A stretch of DNA of 64,000 nt from positions 64,001-128,000 of the forward strand of contig CANLTW010000001.1 of NCBI GenBank assembly GCA_947494155.1. The letters run 5' to 3'. The notes beneath the pieces are model-generated. The model made no database searches. It was not told the origin of the DNA and was given only the letters and a program-made list of their open reading frames with translations. The position numbers and the translations under genes are program-made. Shown here piece after piece: positions 3,764-53,451 of this stretch; the stretch's first letter is position 1, and every line of letters begins with the position of its first letter. This DNA is from Chlamydiota bacterium (GTDB lineage: Bacteria; Chlamydiota; Chlamydiia; Chlamydiales; RGXB01).

Positions 3764-5110
3764 ATGAGCGAAAAAAAGACTATTGCAGCGATCGCTACTC
3801 CTCCTGGTGATGGCGGGGTGGGGATTATCCGCATTAGCGGTCCCGAGGCTGTTGGAATTGCCAATAAAATTGTACAAATCGACCTTTTACAAAAAGAGAG
3901 CCACAAGGTCTATTTTACCAAAGCTTTAACCCCTTCTAAGGAGATCCTTGACGAGGTACTAGTCTTCAAGATGTGCACACCCCGCTCCTTTACCGGCGAA
4001 GATGTAGTAGAAATCCAGTGCCACGGGGGGCAGCTTGTTTGTAAGAAAATTCTTCAATCGGCCCTGGATTCGGGTGCTAACCTAGCCCTTCCTGGAGAGT
4101 TCACTCTAAGGGCCTTCATGAACGGCAAAATCGACCTTGCTAAAGCCGAATCGATACAGATGCTGATCCACGCCAAAAATACAGCCGCCCTAAAGGCAGC
4201 AAAAAACCAGCTTGAGGGGCACTTATCCCAAAAAATTCTTTTCTTCCAAGAGGAGCTCTTCTCTTTGGCTGCAATTTTGGAAGCCTGGGTTGATTATCCT
4301 GAAGAGGGGCTTGAATTTTTGACAACTGAGGAATTTCTGGAAAAACTCCAGGGGATCATTTTTTCTCTAAAAAAGCTGGAAAACACCTTTTTTTGTGGCA
4401 GCAAGCTAAATACCTCCACTAAACTTTGTCTGATTGGGGCACCCAACGTAGGGAAATCCTCTCTTTTGAATGCGCTGATGGAAAAAGAGCGGGCTATTGT
4501 TACCCCGATAGCCGGGACAACGCGTGATCTTATCGAGGGGGAAATCCATCTTTTTGGTCACCATTTCACTCTGATCGACACCGCCGGAATTAGAGATACC
4601 GACGAGACGATTGAGAAAGAGGGGATCCGCCGCTCCCTTGAAGCGATAGATAAAAGTGATTTAGTCCTCTTCCTTCTCGACGGCTCGCGCCCCAGGACTG
4701 AGTCCGAAAGCGCACTTTTAAAAGAGATGGATGCGCAAAAGACGATAGTGGTCACCAATAAGGCCGATCTCCTCCCTCCACGAGTGAACCCTCAAGGAGT
4801 CCTGATATCTGCAAAACACCTCACCGGTTTAGATACTTTAAAAGAGCTCTTAGTCGAATGGTTGGAGACGCAAAACGGGCAGCTCTCAAAAGAAGAGGTC
4901 ATTTTAGTTCAAGAGCGACACTTCAAAGCGATCCAGCAAGCGATCGACTTTTTAAAAACTGTCGAAATGGGGCTTAAAGAGGGAATAGGTGGCGAACTTT
5001 TAGTCATGGATCTCAAATCGGCAATCCACTCTTTATCGCTCATCATCGGACGAAATGTTACAGAAGAGGTCCTTAACCAGATCTTCAGCCGCTTTTGCGT
5101 TGGGAAATAG
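3764..5110 (+). CDS. mnmE: tRNA modification GTPase MnmE (TrmE)
   Basis: TIAAIATPPG.GGVGIIRISG, SFTGEDVVEIQCHGG, GAPNVGKSS, DTAG, NKAD and C-terminal FCVGK. Confidence 0.97.
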   Translation: MSEKKTIAAIATPPGDGGVGIIRISGPEAVGIANKIVQIDLLQKESHKVYFTKALTPSKEILDEVLVFKMCTPRSFTGEDVVEIQCHGGQLVCKKILQSALDSGANLALPGEFTLRAFMNGKIDLAKAESIQMLIHAKNTAALKAAKNQLEGHLSQKILFFQEELFSLAAILEAWVDYPEEGLEFLTTEEFLEKLQGIIFSLKKLENTFFCGSKLNTSTKLCLIGAPNVGKSSLLNALMEKERAIVTPIAGTTRDLIEGEIHLFGHHFTLIDTAGIRDTDETIEKEGIRRSLEAIDKSDLVLFLLDGSRPRTESESALLKEMDAQKTIVVTNKADLLPPRVNPQGVLISAKHLTGLDTLKELLVEWLETQNGQLSKEEVILVQERHFKAIQQAIDFLKTVEMGLKEGIGGELLVMDLKSAIHSLSLIIGRNVTEEVLNQIFSRFCVGK

Positions 5111-5115
5111 CTCTC

Positions 5116-5754
5116 ATGAGAAAATCTGAAAAAGCCTCGCGTATTTTCGCTCTGCTTAACAACTACTACCCGAGTGTGGATATCCCGCTCAAACACCGAT
5201 GCCCCTATACCCTCTTAGTCGCAGTTTTGTTATCCCAACAGAGCACCGATAAAAAAGTTAATGAGATCACTCCTGAACTTTTTGAAAAGGCCGATTCGCC
5301 CGAAAAAATGGTTGATTTAGGAATAGAGGAAATCCAAAAAATCATTCGCCCTATAGGACTTGCTCCCCAAAAAGCGAAAAACCTCTATGCCTTATCAAAA
5401 ATGCTGTTGGAACATTTTCAGGGTAAAGTTCCCCCTAGACTCGAAGAGCTTATGCAACTCCCTGGAGTGGGGAGAAAAACGGCTCTTTGCGTTTTAGCTC
5501 AAGCCTTTCATCAGGATGCTTTTCCCATAGACACACATATCCTGCGACTCGCAAACCGTTGGGGACTCTCCAAATCCAAAAATCCTCTTCGGGTTGAAGA
5601 GGATTTAAAAAAACTTTTTTTGAAGAGCTCTTGGTCCAAGGTGCATCTTCAAATCATTTTTGCCGGAAGAGAATTTTGCAAAGCCTCCCCACATGACCCG
5701 CAAAAATGCCCTTTTTGCTCCAGCCTAATCTCAACCAAAAAGCCCCTAGATTGA
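5116..5754 (+). CDS. nth: Endonuclease III
   Basis: LLVAVLLSQQSTD, HhH LPGVGRKTA, PIDTHILR and a C-terminal Cys/His Fe-S motif. Confidence 0.93.
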   Translation: MRKSEKASRIFALLNNYYPSVDIPLKHRCPYTLLVAVLLSQQSTDKKVNEITPELFEKADSPEKMVDLGIEEIQKIIRPIGLAPQKAKNLYALSKMLLEHFQGKVPPRLEELMQLPGVGRKTALCVLAQAFHQDAFPIDTHILRLANRWGLSKSKNPLRVEEDLKKLFLKSSWSKVHLQIIFAGREFCKASPHDPQKCPFCSSLISTKKPLD

Positions 5755-6594
5755 GGCGATCGGCTGCCCCATTTTAATCAAAACCTCCCCTTCAGGAAAA
5801 TCGAGATCCTCCTCCACAACGACCCCCTCTTTTAAAAGAAGAACGCACATCGATCCGCCAAAAGAAAAATGCCCTAACTCGTCCCCCTTTTTCACCTCAT
5901 CCCCCTCTTTTACTTTGAGGTGAATTGTACCTACAAATGTCGCTCCGACTAATACCATCGCGTAGGTTTCAAATTCTAAAAGTACTCTTTTATTCTCGTG
6001 CAAAATCGATAAATTCTGTTTCAGCGCTATAGGAGAAACCGAAAACAGAGGACCGTTCATTTTTTTAACCGATAGAATTTTCCCATCCATGGGGGCATGT
6101 AATCTATGGTAATCTTGTGGAGCCAAACGGACCGTTAAAATTTTTCCATTCTCAAATTTTTTTGCGATATTTTTGTCCTTAACAAGCCTTTCTAGCGAAA
6201 AATTTTTCCCCTTTACATCAAACGTTTTCTCTTGAATCACCTTCACTCTGCCGTCCGCTGGGCTGATCAACTTTTTTTCATCAAGATAGATAGGGCGCGC
6301 GCAAGATTTAAGCCTCCTTTCAAAAAAGTCTGAGAAGGTCGGGAACTCGCTTGCAAGAAATTCGTCTCTTTTGACCTTGTATTTTTCTATAAAAGGGTCA
6401 ATAGATTTTTTGCTGTAAGCGCTTTTTTGAAATTGCGCATAGGCCCAGCCCAAAAACGGGACATGGGCTAACAAAAATCGGGCGATTTTGCTAATTAGAT
6501 TGTCTTTATATAGCCACACCAATGCATTTTTTGCGGGGGGCTCTTCTTCAAGTATCTGTTTGGATTCTCTGTCGAGTAGTTTAATCGATGTCAT
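5746..6594 (-). CDS. psd: Phosphatidylserine decarboxylase proenzyme
   Basis: F.DFF.R.LK, ISPADG, RLAPQDYHRLHAP, VGATFVG and self-cleavage motif FGGS. Confidence 0.93.
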   Translation of the reverse strand: MTSIKLLDRESKQILEEEPPAKNALVWLYKDNLISKIARFLLAHVPFLGWAYAQFQKSAYSKKSIDPFIEKYKVKRDEFLASEFPTFSDFFERRLKSCARPIYLDEKKLISPADGRVKVIQEKTFDVKGKNFSLERLVKDKNIAKKFENGKILTVRLAPQDYHRLHAPMDGKILSVKKMNGPLFSVSPIALKQNLSILHENKRVLLEFETYAMVLVGATFVGTIHLKVKEGDEVKKGDELGHFSFGGSMCVLLLKEGVVVEEDLDFPEGEVLIKMGQPIASI

Positions 6595-6654
6595 AAAAAT
6601 TGATTATATCTTTCACATCGTTTATGCTCAAGGATCAAGAATTAGGGTTTTTTC

Positions 6655-9633
6655 ATGATTTTCGACCTTTTAAAACGGATATTTGGCACACAGCAGACTC
6701 GCATGGTCCGCAAGTACTTCAAAATTGTTCAAAAGATCAATAAAGAAGAAGAGAAACTCCAACCTCTTTCCGATGAGGCGATCCGCTCTAAAACAGCCGA
6801 GTTTAGAGCCCGTTTAGAAAAGGGCGAGACGACCGATGATCTTATGGTTGAGGCTTACGCCGTTGTGAAAAACGTCTGCCGCCGTCTTGTAGGGACCGAT
6901 GTTCATGTATCAGGATACGATCAAAAATGGGATATGATCCCCTACGATGTGCAGCTTGTGGGGGCGATTGCAATGCACCATCAAACGATTTGCGAAATGC
7001 AAACAGGGGAAGGAAAAACGCTCACCGCCTCCATGCCTGCTTACTTGCATGGCCTTACGGGGAAGGGTGTGCACGTTGTAACCGTAAACGACTATCTGGC
7101 TAAAAGGGACTGTCAATGGATTGGCGTCATCTTTAGATGGCTTGGATTAGATGTTCGCGCATTGACAAACGAAACCTCTCCTATGGAAAAACAAGATACG
7201 TACAACGCCGATATCATTTATGGTACCGCTTCTGAATTCGGATTTGATTATCTCAGAGACAACTCTATGGCCCAAGATGTAGAGGAGCAGTGCCAGCGCA
7301 AACACTATTTTGCCATCATCGACGAGGTCGATTCGATCCTTATCGACGAGGCGAGGACCCCACTCATTATCTCTGGTCCAGCTGGAGAGACGCGTCAGAT
7401 GTACGATGAATTAAAAGAGGATGTCAACGACCTCGTAGCGCTGCAAAAAAGGTACTGCAACACTTTGGCCGAACAGGCTAGAACCATTTTAGACAAAATG
7501 GGTCTTTTCAAAGATTTAGAAGAGCAACCGAAGCTTACAAAAGAGCAAACGAAGCTGAAAAATGAGGCGATTCGCCTCCTTTGGAAGGTCTCTAAAGGGG
7601 TCCCCACCAATAAAATTTTATGCCAGGCAAAAGAGCTCCCTGACATCCGTGCCGACTTAGAAAATCTGGAAACCTATTTGCATGCTGAAGTCAATAAAGA
7701 GGAAAAAATCGAGCTCTTAACCGACCTTTACCTGATTATCGATGAGAGATCGAATGATTTCGAGTTGACCGATAAAGGGATTCACGCCTGGAAAGGGGGA
7801 GCCGAAGACTTCACCCTTGTTGACCTCACAGAAGTTTTTCAAAACATCGATGAGATGCCCCTCTCAGAAGAGGAAAAAATGAAGGAGCGGGTGAAAGTAC
7901 GTGAAGAGGACTCTTTGAAAAAAGAGCGCGCTCACAACTTGCGTCAGCTTTTCCGAGCCCATTTGACGATGGAAAAAGATGTGGATTATATCGTTCAGGA
8001 AAAAAAGGTCATCATTATTGATGAAAACACGGGCCGTCCGCAGCCGGGTCGCCGTTTTTCTGATGGATTGCATCAGGCAATAGAAGCAAAAGAGAATCTA
8101 CCCGTCCAAAGAGAAACACAGACCTACGCAACTATCACTTTGCAAAACTACTTCAGGATGTACGAGCGGCTTGCAGGGATGACTGGTACTGCAATGACCG
8201 AAGCGACCGAATTTAAACAGATTTATAACCTCGAAGTTTTGCAGATCCCCACCAATCGGCCTAACCAAAGAGCCGATGCCGATGACGAAATTTACATGAC
8301 CGAAAGGGAAAAATTCCAGGCGATCCTCAAGGACATTCAGGAAAAACATAAAATCGGACGCCCGGTACTTGTGGGTACGGAGACTGTTGAGGCATCAGAG
8401 AAATTTTCCAGAATTTTACAACAAGCCGGTTTGCCACATCACGTGTTAAATGCAAAACAGCCCGAAAAAGAGGCTGAAATTATTGCGATGGCGGGGCAAA
8501 AAGGGGCAATCACCGTCTCCACCAATATGGCAGGACGGGGAACCGATATCAAGCTGACCAAAGAGGTGGAATCTTTTGGTGGGCTCCATGTCGTGGGAAC
8601 GACCCGTCACCAATCACGCCGTATCGATAGACAGCTTCGTGGTAGATCGGGGCGTCAAGGAGATAAAGGGAGCTCTAAGTTTTACGTCTCTTTTGAAGAT
8701 CCTCTGATGCGTCTGTTCACCTCCCCGAAATTGAGTCAGTTTCTGGTTCGCTTCCGTCCTCCTGAAGGGGAAGCTATTACCGGAGGGTTGATCAATCGCT
8801 CGATCGAAACAGCTCAAAAAAGGGTCGAACAGAGAAACTATGCGATCCGCAAACACACTCTCGAGTATGACGACGTGATGAATTTGCAACGTCAAGAGGT
8901 GTATGCTTTCCGGAACGACATCTTGAAAAATCCTAACCCTTTTTCTATCGGGAAAAAAGTTCTTGAGGGAGTTTGCTCCATTTTGGTCGAAAAAGAGTTT
9001 AAAGAGACTCCACGAATCGATGCAGACAAGATGCGAAAATTTCAAGAGACCGTTTTTGCTCATATGCCGATTCGTTTTACCGAGGAAGAAATCGAAGCAC
9101 GATACGAATCCATTCAAGAACTTGAGGCCCTTTTTGTCAAAAAAGCGGTCGATATGTACGTAAAAAAACTTGACCATGAAGCAAAAATGATTGCCATGAT
9201 TCAAACAGCAGCCGGTAAACAAGTGGAGCCCCGCTCGGTTTTACAGGGTGTTTTGCGAAATGTTTTTATACGCAACATCGATCATCTATGGCAACAACAT
9301 CTTCTTTCAATCGATCATTTGCGTACCGAGGTTGGTCTATTGACTATTGCGCAAAAAGACCCTCTCTTAGAGTTCAAGCATGAAGCCTTCCGCCTCTTCC
9401 TGCTTTTCCGCGAAGACCTTTATCAGGAAATTACTCATGCTATTTTTTCCATGCAAATGATGTTGCCGAATTCGGAAAAACTCTTGCAAAGTTTGAAGAC
9501 CATCTCCATTCGAGAAATGCCCGGTTTTATTTCGAGCCAAAATTTGGAAACTATTGATGTTTTGATGGAACCGCATGCCTTTAAGCAACCCTCTCACCCG
9601 AAAATCGTAGAGCTTGAAACGGCACATCCCTGA
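6655..9633 (+). CDS. secA: Preprotein translocase subunit SecA
   Basis: EMQTGEGKT, VTVNDYLA, IIDEVDSILIDEARTPLIISG, STNMAGRGTDI and RRIDRQLRGRSGRQGD. Confidence 0.98.
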   Translation: MIFDLLKRIFGTQQTRMVRKYFKIVQKINKEEEKLQPLSDEAIRSKTAEFRARLEKGETTDDLMVEAYAVVKNVCRRLVGTDVHVSGYDQKWDMIPYDVQLVGAIAMHHQTICEMQTGEGKTLTASMPAYLHGLTGKGVHVVTVNDYLAKRDCQWIGVIFRWLGLDVRALTNETSPMEKQDTYNADIIYGTASEFGFDYLRDNSMAQDVEEQCQRKHYFAIIDEVDSILIDEARTPLIISGPAGETRQMYDELKEDVNDLVALQKRYCNTLAEQARTILDKMGLFKDLEEQPKLTKEQTKLKNEAIRLLWKVSKGVPTNKILCQAKELPDIRADLENLETYLHAEVNKEEKIELLTDLYLIIDERSNDFELTDKGIHAWKGGAEDFTLVDLTEVFQNIDEMPLSEEEKMKERVKVREEDSLKKERAHNLRQLFRAHLTMEKDVDYIVQEKKVIIIDENTGRPQPGRRFSDGLHQAIEAKENLPVQRETQTYATITLQNYFRMYERLAGMTGTAMTEATEFKQIYNLEVLQIPTNRPNQRADADDEIYMTEREKFQAILKDIQEKHKIGRPVLVGTETVEASEKFSRILQQAGLPHHVLNAKQPEKEAEIIAMAGQKGAITVSTNMAGRGTDIKLTKEVESFGGLHVVGTTRHQSRRIDRQLRGRSGRQGDKGSSKFYVSFEDPLMRLFTSPKLSQFLVRFRPPEGEAITGGLINRSIETAQKRVEQRNYAIRKHTLEYDDVMNLQRQEVYAFRNDILKNPNPFSIGKKVLEGVCSILVEKEFKETPRIDADKMRKFQETVFAHMPIRFTEEEIEARYESIQELEALFVKKAVDMYVKKLDHEAKMIAMIQTAAGKQVEPRSVLQGVLRNVFIRNIDHLWQQHLLSIDHLRTEVGLLTIAQKDPLLEFKHEAFRLFLLFREDLYQEITHAIFSMQMMLPNSEKLLQSLKTISIREMPGFISSQNLETIDVLMEPHAFKQPSHPKIVELETAHP

Positions 9634-9697
9634 ACAAATTTCCCCAATAGATCTCTTTTTATCCTTTTTTAAAAAGAGATCTATTCAATCAGATGCC

Positions 9698-10384
9698 TTG
9701 ATCTCTAAGTATTCTTGCCTGTTCTTCCTTTTTTTACCCTATGCATCGGCTGCAGGATCCAGAATACCGACAGAAATCAATGAGCGAAACATTTTCTGCA
9801 AATCACCCGAAATTTTTGTAGTGGAGAATTTTGCTGACGATACCCTTTGTGAACATCTTGTGCGTGTAGCACTACCTCATCTGAAGCATTCTACAGTTGT
9901 GGATTTGACGGGAAAATCGCACGGAGTGATCGATTCCGGCCGCACAAGTAGCGGTATGTATTTTCCCCCGATGCTGCAGGATAAACACATCGATCATCTT
10001 GAAAAAAAAATTGCTCAGCTCACCTCCCTTCCACAAAAAAATGGGGAATGGATCCAGGTATTGCGTTATAAACCTTCACAGGAGTACCGCCCCCATTACG
10101 ATTTCTTCGATCCGCAAACACTTGGGGGATTAGAGACGCTCAAGCGGGGGGGACAACGCGTAGTGACATGTATTTTGTATCTGAAGGAACCTCTTGTTGG
10201 TGGAGAGACTGTTTTTCCCCTTCTTGGGGTCTCTATTCCCCCAAAAAAAGGATCTTTACTTGTTTTCTACAATTGCGATGAAAAAGGTCAAGTGTTCTAC
10301 GAAACACTTCACGGGGGCGCGCCTGTTATAGAGGGGGAAAAATGGATTGCCACCAAGTGGATACGGCAAAAAACTTTTCACTAA
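9698..10384 (+). CDS. Prolyl 4-hydroxylase (2OG-Fe(II) oxygenase) with probable signal peptide
   Basis: RTSSG, QVLRY, HYD, GGQRVVT.ILYL, GGETVFP, TLHGGAPV and GEKWIATKWIR. Hydrophobic N-terminus ends ASA-A. Start is uncertain (TTG 9698 or 9614). Confidence 0.88.
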   Translation: MISKYSCLFFLFLPYASAAGSRIPTEINERNIFCKSPEIFVVENFADDTLCEHLVRVALPHLKHSTVVDLTGKSHGVIDSGRTSSGMYFPPMLQDKHIDHLEKKIAQLTSLPQKNGEWIQVLRYKPSQEYRPHYDFFDPQTLGGLETLKRGGQRVVTCILYLKEPLVGGETVFPLLGVSIPPKKGSLLVFYNCDEKGQVFYETLHGGAPVIEGEKWIATKWIRQKTFH

Positions 10385-10457
10385 CACTTTAAAGATATTG
10401 AAAAGACAAGCGGGCTCTGGTATACACTTAAACATATTTAAAGAGTTTGTTTGACTT

Positions 10458-12497
10458 ATGGCGTCCAACAGTTTGTCCTCCCGATTTATCGGATTTTTGC
10501 CGTTTCTTTTTCTCTTTACCTATTGTTTTGCAGATCCGCAGCAGGTTGTGATAGTCAGTTACGCAGAATCGGATGCAAACGGCTACCTTACAACTGCAGG
10601 CACCTGTAGCGGTATAGCTCGTGCAAATTATTTTCCCGGGTACCTTTCTGGCACAACCCCATTAAATCTTTATGGACCACCCATAGCACTTTATGGTGCA
10701 CGCCAAACCGCAGACAACCCTGGGCCAAACGTGATTCAATCTCTCATCCCCACCTCAAGATCCTTTAAAGTGCCTCTTCATCTAGGATACGATAGTGGAT
10801 CTCCGGCAGATTTGGCAGATGAGATTTTATCAAACACACTCTACAGCGGAAAAACAGTATTTATCGTATGGGACTATGATGCTATTCCTAGTTTGATCAA
10901 TGCCTTTGGCTACAGCTCCCCAGCCGCCCCAAATCCAGTAGCCTATAACAGAACCTACATTTTACAATTTCCCATTAACTCTCCTTTTCCACTCACTCTA
11001 TGCCAAAGTTTAAACACTTGCGATAGCGGATGTACCCCCCCGCCACCTCCACCTCCATCGCCTCCTCCAGCCCCCCCATCGCCACCTGCACCCACACCTT
11101 TACCTAATCCCCCTCCTCCTATAACCGATTATCTACCCATTACTTTTGTAGATCCCAATTCCGCTAGTTTTGATACTTGGGCGGTAATTACAGGTAAAGT
11201 TCCTGTCGCGTCAGGTCTAACTCCTACACAAGCCTGTTTTGTAAAGATAGACACTAACACTGGCATAGGGACAAGAAGCAACACGACAGCATCAAGCAAT
11301 TCCTCTGAATATGCTTTCAAAATAAAGGACCTTCCCACACTAAACGGAAACCGGTATCTCTACTTACCCTATCTTGACTCCGGAGAAATCTATTTTTCGA
11401 TTGGCGCCCTTGGTGATGATGACCCAAAATGGGCTGTTAAGCTGGATGTCGAATCAACTGGTGGATATGATTTTAAAAAAATTGAACCACTAGATGTAAA
11501 TAAACAATACTATAACCTTCTATTTGATAAGGCTCTTTGTGCTTTTTTACCCACAGGGCAAAACAGCCAATTCTATGTGAGTGCGGTAGATTTTTTTGGT
11601 CTGCCTATGTATGTGGAGCTCTTTCTTGCAAAACCTACATCGAGTAGCGCCAGTCAAAACTGCGGGTTTTGGCAAAGCAGATCCTCTTGTTTTACCGCTT
11701 TTGAAAGAATTTTAAAATCTGCATATGATCAAACAACCCTAGACAAATGGGGTAATTTGTTTATTAATGCTTCTTCTGGAGGTACGACAGTCAACTTAAG
11801 ACTTTCTTCCACACAACTAGCCATGACTTATTCCTCATCAACTCCCATTTTTCCTAAAACTTACTTATCTGATTCTACTCTTTTCATAGAACCTTTTGAT
11901 TGGACCGATAAAGTGTGGAAAACATTTTACCAATCTAATGGTTCGAATAAACTTTTTATCGACTGCTCAGGTGTCTCACCCCCTTATAATATCCCCATGT
12001 CTGGCTCAACAGCCACTACCCCCCCTTACAGTTTTGATTTCCAATACACCTCTGGTACAGTCACTTTATCCTCTTCACTTAAACTTCCCACTGACTCCTA
12101 TGGATTTTTTTCGGGTGATTACAGTGCGTTTGATGCAATTACAGATGTCCAAAAAGAATTGGTAGATAACCTCACTGCAGCGTTTAGTAGCGGACTTCTT
12201 CCGGTTGATGGTGCAAGTCAGACGCTCAATAGCGCTTTTTTTCAGGCAAACCAAGCCAGTTTCTACACAAATACTTTTATACAGACGGCATTCCCCTCTC
12301 AGTCGGGACCCTTCTATGACCTTTACGCAAAAGCAATCCATCAGGCTTTTTCTACCAATCAACCCCAAATTTATGCGTTCAAAAACGATGACCTTTTAGG
12401 ATTTGTCGGCAAAACCACATTTGACACGATAGAAGACGCTTATATTACCCTTACATTTGGTAGTCTCGAAGGACAAACTTTAGTCTACCCTCCGTAA
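10458..12497 (+). CDS. Secreted protein: degenerate histidine-phosphatase-like domain + polyproline linker + GH64 beta-1,3-glucanase-like domain
   Basis: Signal peptide ending CFA-D. GH64-like motifs LPYLDSGEIYFSIG, SAVDFFGLPM, YDLYAKAIH and YAFKNDDLLG. N-terminal VVIVSYAE...YSGKTVFIVWDYDAIPSL. Confidence 0.75.
   Translation: MASNSLSSRFIGFLPFLFLFTYCFADPQQVVIVSYAESDANGYLTTAGTCSGIARANYFPGYLSGTTPLNLYGPPIALYGARQTADNPGPNVIQSLIPTSRSFKVPLHLGYDSGSPADLADEILSNTLYSGKTVFIVWDYDAIPSLINAFGYSSPAAPNPVAYNRTYILQFPINSPFPLTLCQSLNTCDSGCTPPPPPPPSPPPAPPSPPAPTPLPNPPPPITDYLPITFVDPNSASFDTWAVITGKVPVASGLTPTQACFVKIDTNTGIGTRSNTTASSNSSEYAFKIKDLPTLNGNRYLYLPYLDSGEIYFSIGALGDDDPKWAVKLDVESTGGYDFKKIEPLDVNKQYYNLLFDKALCAFLPTGQNSQFYVSAVDFFGLPMYVELFLAKPTSSSASQNCGFWQSRSSCFTAFERILKSAYDQTTLDKWGNLFINASSGGTTVNLRLSSTQLAMTYSSSTPIFPKTYLSDSTLFIEPFDWTDKVWKTFYQSNGSNKLFIDCSGVSPPYNIPMSGSTATTPPYSFDFQYTSGTVTLSSSLKLPTDSYGFFSGDYSAFDAITDVQKELVDNLTAAFSSGLLPVDGASQTLNSAFFQANQASFYTNTFIQTAFPSQSGPFYDLYAKAIHQAFSTNQPQIYAFKNDDLLGFVGKTTFDTIEDAYITLTFGSLEGQTLVYPP
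11037..11120 (+). repeat. Polyproline-coding low-complexity tract
   Basis: Encodes PPPPPPPSPPPAPPSPPAPTPLPNPPPP with mixed CCN codons. Confidence 0.9.
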
Positions 12498-12673
12498 AAT
12501 AGCAAAAACTAACTAAAGGTGATTTGAAAAAAGACTACAATAAATCTATAAAAGGGAAAATAACCCCCCTATTTTTTTGAAGATGTTCGGTAATCTCTGG
12601 AATAAAAAAATAAAACAGGCCATATGAAGGTAGAAGTAGCAAAAAAACTTTTTGTTCGAGGTCAAGATCACCC

Positions 12674-13612
12674 ATGAAAAAAAATCCGGTCCCAGGGATT
12701 TACCTTTTTATTTTTTCTTTTTTTCCCATTTTATGTGCCGAAAATAGTCTTACAAATATTGAACTTGAGGGAGAATTTCTCTACTGGACAGCATACCAAA
12801 ACGATTTTGGTTGTGCCACCCACTCTACACCGGTTTTTACCACAACGGATTTTCTTTTAAATCGGATTGACAAACCCACCTATTCCTGGCGGCCAGGCTA
12901 TAGATTAAGCGGATATTATGATGTTTTTTTTGGGGAAGTGGGGGCAAGATTTACCTCCTACCAAGGGGCGTTGAACGAGAGGTATGGAACCTCAGCTTTA
13001 GAGGGGTTTTACCCCCTTTTCACACTATGGAACGATAAATTACCAAGCGATTACACACGCTTTTCCTCCATAAAAGGGGCAATCGATCTTTGGAGTATCG
13101 ATGCATATGCCCTATTCAATCTTTTAAGTGAGGATATCCTTATATATCCGAAAATTGGAGTAAGAAATTTGTGGCTTAACCAAAGCTACGATGTTACGTA
13201 TGACGGGGGGACTTTTGCAGCAGGCACCGATATCCTCTTTCGCTCATCCAAGTTTTATGGTGTAGGACCTCAAGCGGGATTAACCGGTTTCTTGCAGCTT
13301 TTCGGAAATTTCTTTTTGACAGGGGAAGCTTTGGGAACATGGTATGCCGGTACCTTCAAAGATTTTCAATCCGAAACTTTTTTAGATCGAACGCTTACTG
13401 ATCAAAAACTTACCCAAACCTACAGCCGGTTTAGCCTAGACTTGCAAGGGGGCCTTGAATGGGCGGGGAGTTTTTTTGATGACCGTTTTTTAGTGGGTAT
13501 AACGGTAGGGGGGGACTGGATTTACTTCAATAAAGGGTCGAACAAACTCCCTTTCAACGGCTCAGCAACCTTTTTCACAGGGGCCCACGCCGGCATCAAA
13601 ATCGCGTTTTAA
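12674..13612 (+). CDS. Outer-membrane beta-barrel protein (Lpg1974/chlamydial MOMP-like family)
   Basis: Signal peptide, GEFLYW, WRPGYRL.G.Y, SKFYGVGPQAG, amphipathic strands and C-terminal Phe. Confidence 0.75.
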   Translation: MKKNPVPGIYLFIFSFFPILCAENSLTNIELEGEFLYWTAYQNDFGCATHSTPVFTTTDFLLNRIDKPTYSWRPGYRLSGYYDVFFGEVGARFTSYQGALNERYGTSALEGFYPLFTLWNDKLPSDYTRFSSIKGAIDLWSIDAYALFNLLSEDILIYPKIGVRNLWLNQSYDVTYDGGTFAAGTDILFRSSKFYGVGPQAGLTGFLQLFGNFFLTGEALGTWYAGTFKDFQSETFLDRTLTDQKLTQTYSRFSLDLQGGLEWAGSFFDDRFLVGITVGGDWIYFNKGSNKLPFNGSATFFTGAHAGIKIAF

Positions 13613-13620
13613 AACCCTTT

Positions 13621-13974
13621 TTATTCTCCCTTACACAGTCCGTAGACCAAAAGAATCATAGCGGCTATAAAAATCCAGGGCATCCAATAGGTTTCTATGG
13701 TGATATCCACCCCTTTGGATCCGCCAATACCCCACAAAAAGAGTGCCAAAGGAGCGAGTACTCCCCCAACAACAATAGAGTAAAATGAGCGAACCCCCCC
13801 ATTATCGGGCACCAAAGCAACGATAGGCTCCTCAGATTTTACCTGATATATCGGGGTAAATATCTCTTTATTTTCGACTTTATCCATCTGTGTACCACAG
13901 TAAGGGCAATCTTCAGAATAAAAGTCGATGAATCCTTCACAAAAAGGGCAAAGTTTTGCGTATTGATTGGACAT
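13621..13974 (-). CDS. Zinc-ribbon (CxxC...CxxC) membrane protein, conserved-hypothetical type
   Basis: CPFC...CPYC at the N-terminus, two C-terminal hydrophobic segments, purine-rich RBS before ATG 13974. Confidence 0.75.
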   Translation of the reverse strand: MSNQYAKLCPFCEGFIDFYSEDCPYCGTQMDKVENKEIFTPIYQVKSEEPIVALVPDNGGVRSFYSIVVGGVLAPLALFLWGIGGSKGVDITIETYWMPWIFIAAMILLVYGLCKGE

Positions 13975-14052
13975 AGACTCTTTTCCCCGTTTCGAATGGA
14001 GGTTTTTTTGCCCCATAACAGTTGTCTTAAATTTCTTTCAACTTTTGGTTTT

Positions 14053-14101
14053 AAGGTTTCCATGAAACCTTTTGATTTAGGATGACAAATTCCCCTATAC
14101 T
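14053..14101 (+). promoter_or_regulatory. Sigma70/66-type promoter for lpdA with an abutting inverted repeat
   Basis: TTGATT (14072)-18 nt-TATACT (14096). AAGGTTTC-cat-GAAACCTT at 14053-14071. Confidence 0.55.
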
Positions 14102-14121
14102 AAAAAAATAGTCGAACCTGA

Positions 14122-15531
14122 ATGGATGAAAAACTCATGCGCACTTTTGATGTGGTAGTGATTGGAGCCGGTCCCGGCGGTTATGTTGCAGCAATCTATG
14201 CCGCACATCATGGATGCAAAACGGCTCTCATCTCAAAACAAAAAGATTTGGGTGGAACCTGTTTGAATCGGGGTTGCATTCCAAGCAAAGCTCTGATCAC
14301 AAGCGCCGAAGTGCATAGAACAATCACCCAAGAGGCTCAAAAGCATGGGATTGAAGTTGCCGGCCCCGTCAAGGTGCACTACGATAAGATGAGCGCACGT
14401 AAAGATCAGGTAATCCAAACAATGCAATCGGGTTTAAGAACCACCATAGTAAGCCACGAGGTGGAGCTGATTGATGGGTTAGCCTCTTTTGAATCTCAAA
14501 CTCGCATCCGGGTACAAAGCGACTCAGGCACCGAAATGATTGATACTCAATTTATCATTATAGCGACAGGCTCTGAGGTATCCCCCTTTCCAGCTATCCC
14601 TTTTGACGATACGCACATCCTTAGCTCAACCTCAATATTAGAGCTCAAAGAGCTTCCGAAAACTTTAGCTGTGATTGGCGGCGGTTATATCGGATGCGAA
14701 ATTGCCTGTATGATGCGTGGTTTGGGGGTCGAGGTGACCATCATCGAAGCACTCGATAAAATTATCAAACCGGTCGGAGATTCCCCCTCAGCACAGCTCA
14801 CTGAGAGCTTGAAATCCATGGGAATACGTTTAGAGCTCGAAAAAAGGGTAACCGGTTATTCGATTCAGAGCGGACAGGTGGAGCTTAACTTAGACAATAG
14901 CCAAAAAATTCAGGCTGAAAAAGTCCTTGTGGCGATCGGAAGAAGACCCTTTACCGAGGGGCTTAAGCTCGAAAAAGCGGGAGTCTTTACAAATCCAAGA
15001 GGCTTCATCCAAGTCAATGAACAGATGCGTACCAATATCCCAAACATTTTTGCGATAGGGGATGTAAATGGTGTTTTCATGCTAGCCCACGCCGCCTCCT
15101 ACCAAGGAAAAGTCGCTGTTGACGCTATCTTTAACAAAAATCGGCATTTTGACCCCAAACTTGTACCGCAAGTAATTTTTACCAAACCCGAGATCGCTGT
15201 TGTTGGAACTCTTGAGGGGGCAAAACAGATTTTCCCTTACGGAGCAAATGGCAAAGCGGTTGCAAGCGCTAAAACTTTAGGAACTATCACCGTTTACTAT
15301 GATGAAAAAACGAAAGTCGTCCATGGTGTGGAAATAGTCGGAGAGCAAGCCACAACCATGATTGCCATTGCGACTATATATCTGACACAAGAACTTACAA
15401 TTGATACTTTTGACACCACTATTTTTGCCCACCCCACCTACGCAGAGGCGATGGTTGAACCATTTGAGATGGTTCTAGATAAACAGATCCATTTTCCAAA
15501 AAAGAAAAAACAAAAGGCTGCTTTAGTTTGA
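14122..15531 (+). CDS. lpdA: Dihydrolipoamide dehydrogenase
   Basis: GAGPGGY, GGTCLNRGCIPSK, GGGYIGCE, AIGD and HPTYAE. Confidence 0.96.
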   Translation: MDEKLMRTFDVVVIGAGPGGYVAAIYAAHHGCKTALISKQKDLGGTCLNRGCIPSKALITSAEVHRTITQEAQKHGIEVAGPVKVHYDKMSARKDQVIQTMQSGLRTTIVSHEVELIDGLASFESQTRIRVQSDSGTEMIDTQFIIIATGSEVSPFPAIPFDDTHILSSTSILELKELPKTLAVIGGGYIGCEIACMMRGLGVEVTIIEALDKIIKPVGDSPSAQLTESLKSMGIRLELEKRVTGYSIQSGQVELNLDNSQKIQAEKVLVAIGRRPFTEGLKLEKAGVFTNPRGFIQVNEQMRTNIPNIFAIGDVNGVFMLAHAASYQGKVAVDAIFNKNRHFDPKLVPQVIFTKPEIAVVGTLEGAKQIFPYGANGKAVASAKTLGTITVYYDEKTKVVHGVEIVGEQATTMIAIATIYLTQELTIDTFDTTIFAHPTYAEAMVEPFEMVLDKQIHFPKKKKQKAALV

Positions 15532-52903: not shown

Positions 52904-53001
52904 GCTTTTAAAAACCCTCTATTTTTGCCAATCTCTCTTAACAAGTTTAAAATAAATCCCCTATCGTTTAAGAAACAGGCAAAAGACACCATAGGTTTTT
53001 T

Positions 53002-53451
53002 ATGCAAAAAACGTTAGTAACTTCTCTTATAGCCCTATCCCTTATCTCTTGCTCTACAAACACCGGAACCGGTGCTTTGGTTGGAGGGGGTGGTGGCGCC
53101 CTGATTGGAGGCTTGGCAGGTGGCTGGGAAGGGGCGGCAATCGGTGGTGCTGCCGGTGCTATTTTAGGGGGGCTGATTGGGAATGCAGCAGACCAAAAAG
53201 AAAAACAGCAACAAATTGATAACCAATACCCTGGTCTCTCCCAAAAACTGATCAATAATGAGCCTTTAAATGTTCAAGATGTGATCAATTTATCCAAACA
53301 GAATGTTCCGGCTGAGCAAATTATCCGCTACCTTAAGGATTCGGATAGTCAATTCTCGCTTACAACCCAGGATTGTAAAACTCTTTGTAGAAAAGGGGTT
53401 GACGATTCGGTCGTCAGATATATGAGCCAAGGGCAGTGTGGTTGCAACTGA
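53002..53451 (+). CDS. Glycine-zipper lipoprotein
   Basis: Lipobox LISC, GALVGGGGGALIG...GAAIGGAAGAILGGLIG and C-terminal CGCN. Confidence 0.85.
   Translation: MQKTLVTSLIALSLISCSTNTGTGALVGGGGGALIGGLAGGWEGAAIGGAAGAILGGLIGNAADQKEKQQQIDNQYPGLSQKLINNEPLNVQDVINLSKQNVPAEQIIRYLKDSDSQFSLTTQDCKTLCRKGVDDSVVRYMSQGQCGCN

Follow-up and report, generated by a model that had tools for sequence, protein, structure and literature searches.

Characterised bacterial prolyl 4-hydroxylases (P4Hs) that act on proteins mostly modify cytoplasmic EF-Tu, and the Bacillus anthracis enzyme has reportedly been characterised on collagen-like (Gly-Pro-Pro)n peptides, its natural substrate being said to be unsettled. To our knowledge, almost none of the exported stand-alone bacterial P4Hs has a known substrate. 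The algal enzyme, according to PMC9676403, was crystallised with (Ser-Pro)5 and takes Ser-Pro(n) and polyproline-II peptides as substrates, and a P4H alpha subunit is listed in PMC2376095 among genes common to Chlamydiae and Plantae. Here we describe a 64,000-nucleotide stretch of the genome of a lake-water Chlamydiota bacterium (positions 64,001 to 128,000 of contig CANLTW010000001.1; hereafter the window) in which a putatively exported P4H is encoded beside a secreted polyproline protein, called protein 2 below, and an outer-membrane beta-barrel.

These three genes form a cassette of co-oriented plus-strand open reading frames (ORFs) directly 3' of secA (9614/9698-10384, 10458-12497 and 12674-13612). 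A sequence-only reading of the window had described three co-oriented genes after secA, and all of its ORFs were recovered where it had placed them, with the motifs that it quoted correct. The best-supported new point to emerge is a pairing of the barrel with the N-terminal domain of protein 2. Taken as a whole, the cassette can be read as a stalked protein docked at the outer membrane and co-encoded with a stalk-modifying enzyme, a reading to which we give about an even chance. The features concerned are listed below; handles beginning with G, C, L and f denote genomes, contigs, loci and families, and G000 is the source genome (1.41 Mb, 24 contigs, completeness 97.6%).

6655..9633, + strand: secA, 992 aa, upstream anchor, 89-90% identical in the cassette-less genomes G001 and G003
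9698..10384, + strand: putatively exported P4H, 228 aa, TTG start at 9698, frame open from 9614; PF13640
10458..10532, + strand: signal peptide of protein 2, MASNSLSSRFIGFLPFLFLFTYCFA followed by DPQQ, read off the sequence; position conserved among orthologues
10530..11027, + strand: N-domain of protein 2, residues 25-190; histidine-phosphatase-like fold, RHG changed to SYA; predicted barrel-docking module
11037..11120, + strand: polyproline stalk of protein 2, residues 194-221; 21 Pro in 28 residues; candidate P4H substrate
11124..12494, + strand: GH64-fold head of protein 2, residues 223-679; Leu360 at 11535-11537, Asp378 at 11589-11591
12674..13612, + strand: 312-aa beta-barrel of the outer membrane; small, divergent Legionella_OMP member, C-terminal Phe; predicted dock of the N-domain
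13621..14016, - strand: small zinc-ribbon membrane protein, downstream boundary of the cassette; adjoins secA in the cassette-less G003 and G001

The N-domain of protein 2 is predicted to dock on the barrel

Protein 2 (679 aa, secreted) consists of an N-domain, a polyproline stalk and a GH64-fold head. The N-domain, the module for which barrel contact is predicted, was missed in the sequence-only reading. Its homologues in other chlamydiae are secreted proteins of 185-280 aa with RHGE or RHAE where the window protein has SYAE (VIVSYAES compared with IIIRHGEK or LLMRHAEK), and the catalytic Arg-His-Gly is thus not present in the window copy. Pfam gave no match to the N-domain or to its RHGE homologues, and a word-based search for short relatives of the N-domain returned only two orthologue fragments. 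For the N-domain, a Foldseek search with the AlphaFold model of protein 2 returned weak matches to histidine-phosphatase folds (E 0.019-0.06; RosC 9emu at 0.019, Huf 2yn2 at 0.039, PFKFB3 and EhPSP), and an Atlas feature score of 0.93, taken as a lead only, points to a cluster with His_Phos_1 in 23% of its members. We read the N-domain as a histidine-phosphatase-fold domain without the catalytic motif.

The barrel scored 29.4 bits against PF05150 in hmmscan (cut-off 25.4), but 20.7 bits in a six-frame search of the genome. It has the signature of an outer-membrane protein, namely a leader (MKKNPVPGIYLFIFSFFPILCA followed by EN), strands of alternating hydrophobicity and the end ...IKIAF, and the earlier description of a beta-barrel ending in Phe is confirmed by this leader, the amphipathic strands and the terminal residue. 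Its 312 aa compare with open frames of 343-419 aa for the 12 clearer PF05150 paralogues in the same genome; a single-sequence search of that genome found no paralogue of the barrel, and no solved structure related to it was matched. In sequence comparison it belongs to a subfamily of its own, one that travels with N-domain genes. PF05150 itself has 13 matches in the genome, with eight paralogues on one strand at G000:C1:171633-185191 and another pair at C1:41707-43839, both outside the window. Kinship of the barrel with the PomS porin family of Protochlamydia was considered and dropped, as the published text on PomS makes no mention of Legionella and allowed no comparison.

Three complex predictions for protein 2 (residues 25-679) and the barrel (residues 23-312) gave ipSAE values, a measure of the confidence of the model, of 0.80, 0.75 and 0.72, compared with 0.00 for all three controls. 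Of the 157 solved complexes and 215 mismatched pairs used to calibrate the tool, 116 and 2, respectively, attain this mark, counts that apply only roughly here because our own alignments were used. The three runs had at least 85% of contacts in common, with a pLDDT of at least 82 for the partners, and since the barrel has no solved relative, the pass does not reflect memory of a known complex. On protein 2 the predicted contacts fall on N-domain residues 76-128, including a loop (88-109) that is disordered in the monomer model and in which P98, S100 and H108 are invariant among nine full-length relatives (27-68% identical to the window protein). On the barrel they fall on segments 54-58, 108-127, 179-186 and 236-241, which a rough strand plot shows as long inter-strand regions on one face, after strands 1, 3, 5 and 7; the linker is not among the confident contacts.

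Independently of the model, the same pairing recurs across the phylum. An A4-type barrel gene lies within 500 nt and on the same strand at 23 of the 45 N-domain-family genes examined, and by genome labels these 23 loci span at least seven chlamydial families. The paired N-domain genes comprise 15 stand-alone genes, 12 of them scored RHGE or RHAE, and fusions to GH64 heads (genus g1, G130, G392 and L068), and the 22 N-domain genes with no barrel nearby are mostly lower-scoring and of the RHAE type. For example, G398 (L109, C8) carries at 4501-7621 a barrel gene followed by a gene for a 700-aa fusion of the N-domain to an arylsulfotransferase (PF14269, 3.8e-49), and in a 33%-identical relative the barrel gene likewise precedes the N-domain gene. 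In G141 (L108, C1) four genes on one strand (4629-9553) encode a barrel, an RHGE N-domain, a GH64-like protein with a Pro-rich start and a second barrel, a row that may represent an unfused, ancestor-like state of protein 2. Modelling and gene pairing together make docking of the N-domain on the barrel probable in our judgement. This agrees with the earlier proposal that the barrel anchors protein 2, with the contact predicted through the N-domain and not through the head; that the barrel might also export protein 2 is speculation. That the complex is exposed at the cell surface, and does not face the periplasm, we rate a little below even.

A putatively exported P4H with an intact active site

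The P4H matches PF13640 (5.6e-17), and its closest solved structures are those of the Chlamydomonas P4H (2jig/3gze, 2.9e-36), followed by the B. anthracis P4H (3itq/5hv0, 1.1e-31) and the human C-P4H catalytic domain (1.2e-23). Alignment to 2jig bore out the earlier statement that the catalytic residues are intact, with HxD, the distal His, the Lys and both Tyr in place. Specifically, PHYDF and TLHGG align to the His-X-Asp...His of the Fe(II) triad, ATKW aligns to SATKW at the 2-oxoglutarate Lys, and YKPSQEY of the beta-I/II loop aligns to YHDGQKY (Tyr134-Tyr140). As PMC9676403 describes these roles, the Lys binds the C5 carboxylate of 2-oxoglutarate and the loop Tyr140 contacts the target Pro.

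Translation from the in-frame TTG at 9698 gives M-ISKYSCLFFLFLPYASA followed by AGSRIPTE, with a leader ending in ASA before AG. This leader (MISKYSCLFFLFLPYASA, then AG) resembles those of orthologues (58-82% identity), which have hydrophobic leaders of about 20-25 aa just ahead of the conserved SRIPT/RKPDE region, and the start at TTG 9698 is supported because the orthologues carry equivalent leaders. Here, as for the other two proteins of the cassette, the signal peptide was judged by eye and by hydrophobicity only. Sequence comparison thus supports an exported P4H with a complete active site.

The motifs that had been called plant/algal-type are present, but they extend throughout the family. 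A search at E<=1e-3 returned 3831 matching clusters, mostly bacterial, and 95 of the 120 best matches have a signal-like N-terminus by a crude hydrophobicity rule, indicating that these are family motifs and that exported bacterial P4Hs are common. Identity to the nearest non-orthologous P4Hs is about 45-55%; source names, available for only a few of these, are Verrucomicrobia, Simkaniaceae and Proteobacteria. Tandem duplicate P4H genes were seen in three chlamydial genomes (G392, L183; G239, L189; G262:C9).

Long proline runs accompany the P4H

The stalk (P7 S P3 A P2 S P2 A P T P L P N P4) occupies residues 194-221 of protein 2, exactly as the tract had been quoted in the sequence-only reading. 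It is the top Pro tract of G000 in all six frames, and no other long Pro tract of the 1.41 Mb is genuine. Two runner-up Pro-rich frames (window 52968-53255 and C5:55295-55642) were rejected as substrates, both being antisense to Gly-rich genes; the former, a 95-aa frame on the minus strand, is the antisense of a Gly-rich lipoprotein-like gene at 53002-53451 (+). An origin of the tract by DNA slippage was also rejected, as the Pro codons are mixed and only a weak 6-/12-nt periodicity is present.

A second adjacency was found in family f8, where G404 carries a P4H and a second PF13640 oxygenase beside a GH64 gene (PF16483, 6.3e-27) whose product begins ...PPPSPPPSPPPSPPPSP..., with four SPPP units. 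Sequence comparison suggests that adjacency of a P4H to a GH64-like gene arose twice independently, in f1 and f8. The second oxygenase of G404 (C77, L106; 4719-5441, minus strand) is diverged, signal-bearing and situated between the P4H and (SPPP)n-GH64 genes (PF13640, 6.4e-09), and the GH64 gene is followed by a convergent ORF whose product has an end, ...NFLYCF, resembling that of an outer-membrane barrel.

Among 401 Chlamydiota genomes sampled, 62 have a P4H, and by hand count the protein-2 profile matches 44 of these 62 compared with 77 of the 339 P4H-negative genomes. Proline content was surveyed in 90 GH64-like genes from 89 genomes, with 4 unlisted and about 10 listed matches falling outside the survey. 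Runs of at least seven Pro before the head occur in nine genomes (families f1, f5, f8 and f33), and all nine are P4H-positive, compared with 34 of the 89 overall. With labels permuted inside each family, 0.5% of trials attained the observed count (p about 0.005), a value that is descriptive given that relatives are not independent. On the sequence comparisons together, we slightly favor action of the P4H on the stalk. A different, moderately Pro-rich ORF, of at least 422 aa, lies directly after the P4H gene in G209 (C27, L175; 5693-6958) and has PPPPP, 9 Pro in 20 residues and no Pfam family; its product is another possible P4H client.

The head has a GH64 fold and lacks the catalytic Glu

The window copy of protein 2 alone gives no match to PF16483 at E<=0.1 (22 bits compared with a cut-off of 27), but orthologues at 60-68% identity do match it (1e-15 to 7e-22). 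A profile search of 1.84 billion representatives returned 669 relatives at E<=1e-3, and a 120-sequence family profile matches the GH64 structures 5h4e (3.7e-43) and 3gd0 (2.4e-35). The AlphaFold model built from a 120-row alignment has a mean pLDDT of 86.3, with values above 90 over the head, and it matches 3gd0 with an E of 4.4e-15 and a TM score of 0.81 on the target. This model replaced one from an 8-row alignment, which was unusable (mean pLDDT 38.9), and searches of the PDB with window protein 2, the 8-row profile or the orthologue P0005 returned low-complexity Pro matches only. The earlier identification as a GH64 polyproline protein therefore stands for the fold and its attachment to a Pro tract, by profile and model, but the window copy misses the Pfam cut-off and has lost the catalytic Glu.

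The catalytic pair of LPHase is Glu154 as acid and Asp170 as base, according to PMC4758615. In our alignment the Glu column holds E in 145 of 154 family members and aligns to the E of FEWAEMAW in 5h4e, 16 residues ahead of the conserved D; this mapping rests on 5h4e, 5h9x and the 16-residue Glu-Asp spacing, not on the 3gd0 alignment over those residues. The window protein has Leu360 in this column, as does its 83%-identical orthologue (Lys in two others), and the Asp is kept as Asp378 in AVDFF (D in 120 of 154). The head is thus probably not a hydrolase, judging by its sequence, and loss of the Glu makes it more likely a binder than a glucanase. Non-hydrolytic binding of beta-1,3-glucan in particular is plausible, if slightly less than an even prospect.

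Selection on the cassette was estimated from the 83%-identical orthologue (L064), which gave dN/dS values of 0.07 for the N-domain, 0.16 for the P4H, 0.46 for the head and 0.08-0.34 for the barrel. For the head, comparison with the Glu-keeping orthologue of G005 gave 0.145, and constraint on the head in this lineage is relaxed but not absent. Both the window protein and the 83%-identical orthologue also lack a C-terminal extension of about 110 aa found in other orthologues. The dS values from L064 are uneven (P4H 0.63, N-domain 1.2, head 0.18, barrel 0.12), a pattern suggestive of recent recombination with a breakpoint close to the Pro tract.

The protein-2 profile matches 121 of the 401 Chlamydiota genomes, N-domain-only matches included, and none of 30 in the small-genome family f35. 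In G033 a GH64-like gene without an N-domain adjoins a generic PF05150 barrel gene.

History and surroundings of the cassette

All three genes are present in four of the six other genomes of the genus, and in the same order wherever contigs show it: secA, P4H, protein 2 and barrel lie whole on one contig in G005 and G004 and are split over contig ends in G006 and G002. Two metagenome loci (L064 and L066) have this order as well, one of them with 22 consecutive Pro. In G003, secA is followed by about 600 nt and then the zinc-ribbon gene, with no cassette, and G001 likewise has no cassette but keeps a 42-residue barrel remnant with two stop codons. Because G001 keeps this remnant, the cassette must predate its lineage and have been deleted there; the earlier description of the genes as inserted after secA is accordingly overturned, as the comparison reveals a deletion in at least one relative and not a fresh insertion. 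Beside the remnant, G001 (C1, L033; 10567-11253) has a 228-aa GNAT-like ORF on the opposite strand (PF00583, a weak match at 0.0022). Short-read contigs end inside the Pro-coding stretch in G002, G006, G392 and G209 (L009/L010, L004/L005, L110/L111 and L112), which indicates that Pro-run lengths are underestimated and that the split 'genes' at these sites are assembly artefacts.

Downstream of the cassette lie the convergent zinc-ribbon membrane protein gene and then lpdA. Base composition across the cassette has no sharp break, and a promoter and terminator scan of 9400-14200 gave counts no higher than shuffles (8 compared with 8.6, and 8 compared with 5.8). NCBIfam had no match to the P4H, protein 2 or the barrel, and a Pfam scan of the cassette proteins found no autotransporter, POTRA or TPS domain, the passenger and the barrel being separate genes. 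A hint of expression comes from four lake-water RNA libraries (four studies), available only in contig form, in which parts of the barrel gene are represented with 0-2 differences; a further contig, about 95% identical, spans 12052-12519 at the 3' end of the protein 2 gene. No contig of the four runs covers the P4H or most of protein 2, a null result that is uninformative on expression given the small shares covered; RNA libraries may contain DNA, and contigs cannot reveal transcripts or operons.

Discussion

Our reading of the cassette can be set out as a sequence of steps. Judging by their sequence features, all three products would be exported by Sec. The barrel would then sit in the outer membrane, where, as the model and comparative genomics suggest, the dead histidine-phosphatase-fold N-domain would dock through its 88-111 loop on the long-loop face. 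At a polyproline-II rise of 3.1 Angstrom per residue, the 28-residue tract would form a stiff stalk with an estimated length of about 8-9 nm. This stalk would bear the GH64-fold head, in which the Glu/Asp pair is kept in related species and the Glu is changed to Leu here, so that the window head would more likely bind than cut beta-1,3-glucan, or may be decaying. Homology, adjacency and co-occurrence suggest that the P4H would 4-hydroxylate the stalk prolines in the periplasm using Fe(II), 2-oxoglutarate and O2. Hydroxylation would make the stalk stiffer or shield it, the effect that P4Hs of plants and algae have on Ser-Pro(n) wall proteins.

Several observations weigh against this account. 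On the enzyme side, none of 20 other chlamydial P4H loci has within 5 kb on either side a GH64-like gene or an ORF with at least 12 Pro in 20 residues (two of the 20 have ORFs with 9-10), and the genes beside the P4H in G038 and in G022 are unrelated, none of them Pro-rich. Outside the genus of the window, a P4H gene was found next to none of 12 loci of protein 2 relatives, and elsewhere in only two of the five genomes concerned. Many P4H-positive genomes have GH64-like genes that lack a Pro tract (G248, G185, G342 and G099), and the P4H-negative G148 has 15 Pro in 20 residues, from which it follows that the P4H must have other substrates or roles. The joint loss of the three genes in G001 and G003 may be a single deletion, the co-occurrence test keeps relatedness within genera, and hydroxylation of the stalk would depend on periplasmic Fe(II), 2-oxoglutarate and a reductant. 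On the side of the docked protein, the fold matches of the N-domain are weak (E 0.02-0.06), with Pfam blank there, and the full-length SYAE N-domain proteins of L067 and L226 have no barrel gene on the available DNA. In addition, the extracellular placing of the contact loops rests on an amphipathicity plot read by eye, and no route for protein 2 across the outer membrane was identified, the three secretin genes of the genome having no link to it.

The enzyme-side observations would be expected if the genes were mere neighbours without an enzyme/substrate relation, the tract being an unmodified linker, like the Pro/Thr linkers of secreted glycanases, and the P4H acting on other envelope proteins or on host proteins. 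In so large a P4H family (3831 clusters, signal-like N-termini in 95 of the 120 best matches) most members cannot have such a partner, 18 of the 62 P4H-positive genomes have no protein-2 profile match, and Pro-rich linkers of varied length occur in P4H-negative genomes (G148, G188 and G096). With 0 of the 20 other loci placing a P4H beside a GH64-like or strongly Pro-rich gene, linkage to Pro-rich neighbours, as the sequence-only reading had implied for an enzyme/substrate pair, proves to be the exception; the pairing itself gains from the second adjacency and from the association with long Pro runs. That adjacency arose twice (f1 and f8), that runs of at least seven Pro are confined to P4H-positive genomes (nine of nine) and that the genome has no other genuine long Pro tract all argue against mere neighbours, which we regard as rather unlikely. 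A cassette in decay, with no current function in this lineage, is a good deal less probable still. Its head has lost the catalytic Glu and about 110 C-terminal residues relative to orthologues, with a dN/dS of 0.46, the N-domain has lost its RHG motif and two of the six genus members have lost the cassette altogether; nevertheless, none of the three reading frames is broken, the P4H keeps every active-site residue, dN/dS stays low in the N-domain (0.07), the P4H (0.16) and the barrel (0.08-0.34), and RNA-library contigs match the barrel gene.

Two further explanations concern what the docked protein does and where it does it. By analogy to SusCD, barrel and partner might be a tethered-enzyme/porin uptake unit in which a docked enzyme processes host substrates at the pore mouth for import; with both catalytic domains dead, the window copy would then be a remnant or turned binder. 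The barrel comes from a porin family with 13 members in the genome; partners that stand alone retain RHGE, Glu/Asp is retained in most relatives of the head, and GH64 and arylsulfotransferase heads can replace one another. GH64-like genes are also frequent among environmental Chlamydiota, with profile matches in 121 of 401 genomes, N-domain-only matches included, and in 0 of 30 from f35. This explanation is also compatible with the docking part of our own. The window copy, though, lacks both catalytic motifs yet has a constrained N-domain (dN/dS 0.07), which argues for a structural role, and most GH64-like genes of the phylum have neither an N-domain nor an adjacent barrel; an uptake unit here seems doubtful to us. 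Alternatively, the whole complex might be periplasmic, with the N-domain on the inner side of the barrel and the head acting on periplasmic or envelope glucan, or with the stalk threading the barrel lumen as the linker of RcsF threads that of OmpA/C/F. Such an arrangement fits a protein 2 with a Sec-type leader only and no lipobox, autotransporter or POTRA features, and a cassette with no dedicated exporter, and the predictor, which has no membrane model, cannot tell the two sides of a barrel apart. Since the N-terminus of a barrel is usually periplasmic, the four contact segments would be extracellular loops by our rough strand calls, and the linker is not among the confident contacts, leaving a periplasmic complex a minority prospect.

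Each part of the cassette belongs to or resembles a known family (collagen-type P4Hs, GH64, PF05150 barrels and the histidine-phosphatase fold). A literature search at abstract level found no report of a chlamydial GH64 or of an exported P4H with a polyproline partner in chlamydiae. On that basis their combination is apparently undescribed; it unites an exported bacterial P4H encoded beside its polyproline candidate substrate, a barrel adaptor with a dead phosphatase fold, and interchangeable heads. The cassette and its G404 twin give exported bacterial P4Hs a concrete candidate substrate. If our reading of a docked protein with a P4H-modified stalk is true, a bacterial envelope protein would bear hydroxyproline-rich stalks, which would explain why very long Pro runs occur only alongside a P4H. 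The pairing of barrel and N-domain suggests that chlamydiae hold secreted enzymes at the outer membrane by a means not yet described, in an envelope that is poorly understood outside pathogens, and the GH64 heads widespread in environmental chlamydiae hint at dealings with the beta-1,3-glucans of protist or algal hosts.

A broader and more tentative proposal, which we think unlikely to hold in full, is that environmental Chlamydiota use a modular display system at the outer membrane. It would consist of a small porin-like barrel and a histidine-phosphatase-fold adaptor, the adaptor being either the enzyme itself or the carrier of interchangeable GH64 or arylsulfotransferase heads on Pro-rich stalks, and in owners of a P4H the stalks would have grown into long hydroxylated rods of polyproline or (SPPP)n, the bacterial equivalent of the hydroxyproline-rich wall proteins of plants and algae, with which they perhaps share a history. 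Mimicry of host walls is speculation.

Comparison with known systems

The P4H of the window shares with Chlamydomonas P4H-1 and the plant P4Hs the HxD...H...K site, the Tyr134/Tyr140 loop and the status of a secretory-compartment enzyme; the beta-IV/V insertion of P4H-1, with its disulfide, corresponds to alignment gaps and is absent here. In contrast to those enzymes, its setting would be the bacterial periplasm and its candidate substrate the interdomain stalk of a single protein, not a wall polymer. It resembles the B. anthracis P4H (3itq, 5hv0) as a small stand-alone bacterial collagen-type enzyme, with the match of 1.1e-31 extending over the whole catalytic domain, but it has a signal-like leader and its candidate substrate has no Gly-X-Y repeat. 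The extensin-like hydroxyproline-rich glycoprotein systems of plants and algae are marked by Ser-Pro(3-5) repeats, a P4H in the same compartment, Hyp O-glycosylation and Tyr cross-link motifs. The cassette has a P4H, and its tract has one SPPP, one SPP and a P7 run, with no repeat array and no Tyr motif; the G404 relative has its four SPPP units.

The head has in common with the GH64 enzymes (3gd0, 5h4e) the two-domain fold, the catalytic Asp and many groove positions, but the equivalent of Glu154 is Leu360, and the window protein adds an N-terminal docking domain and a polyproline stalk. Thaumatin-like proteins, which include non-hydrolytic beta-1,3-glucan binders, share part of the head fold (Foldseek E 2e-4 to 1e-2), although they are much smaller, eukaryotic and disulfide-rich and have no sequence-level relation to it. 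The barrel exceeds the family cut-off for the PF05150 Legionella major outer membrane porins in hmmscan and is shorter and diverged in comparison with them. Autotransporters and two-partner secretion systems differ in that the window genes are separate and, by Pfam, have no POTRA or TPS domain. The closest analogies for the predicted complex are LptD-LptE, RcsF-OmpA/C/F and SusCD, in which a barrel retains a partner that is soluble or lipidated, Sus-type systems holding a glycan-processing enzyme at an outer-membrane channel. There is no homology to any of these; the partner here is no lipoprotein, and the candidate arrangement joins a small porin-like barrel to a dead histidine-phosphatase-fold adaptor.

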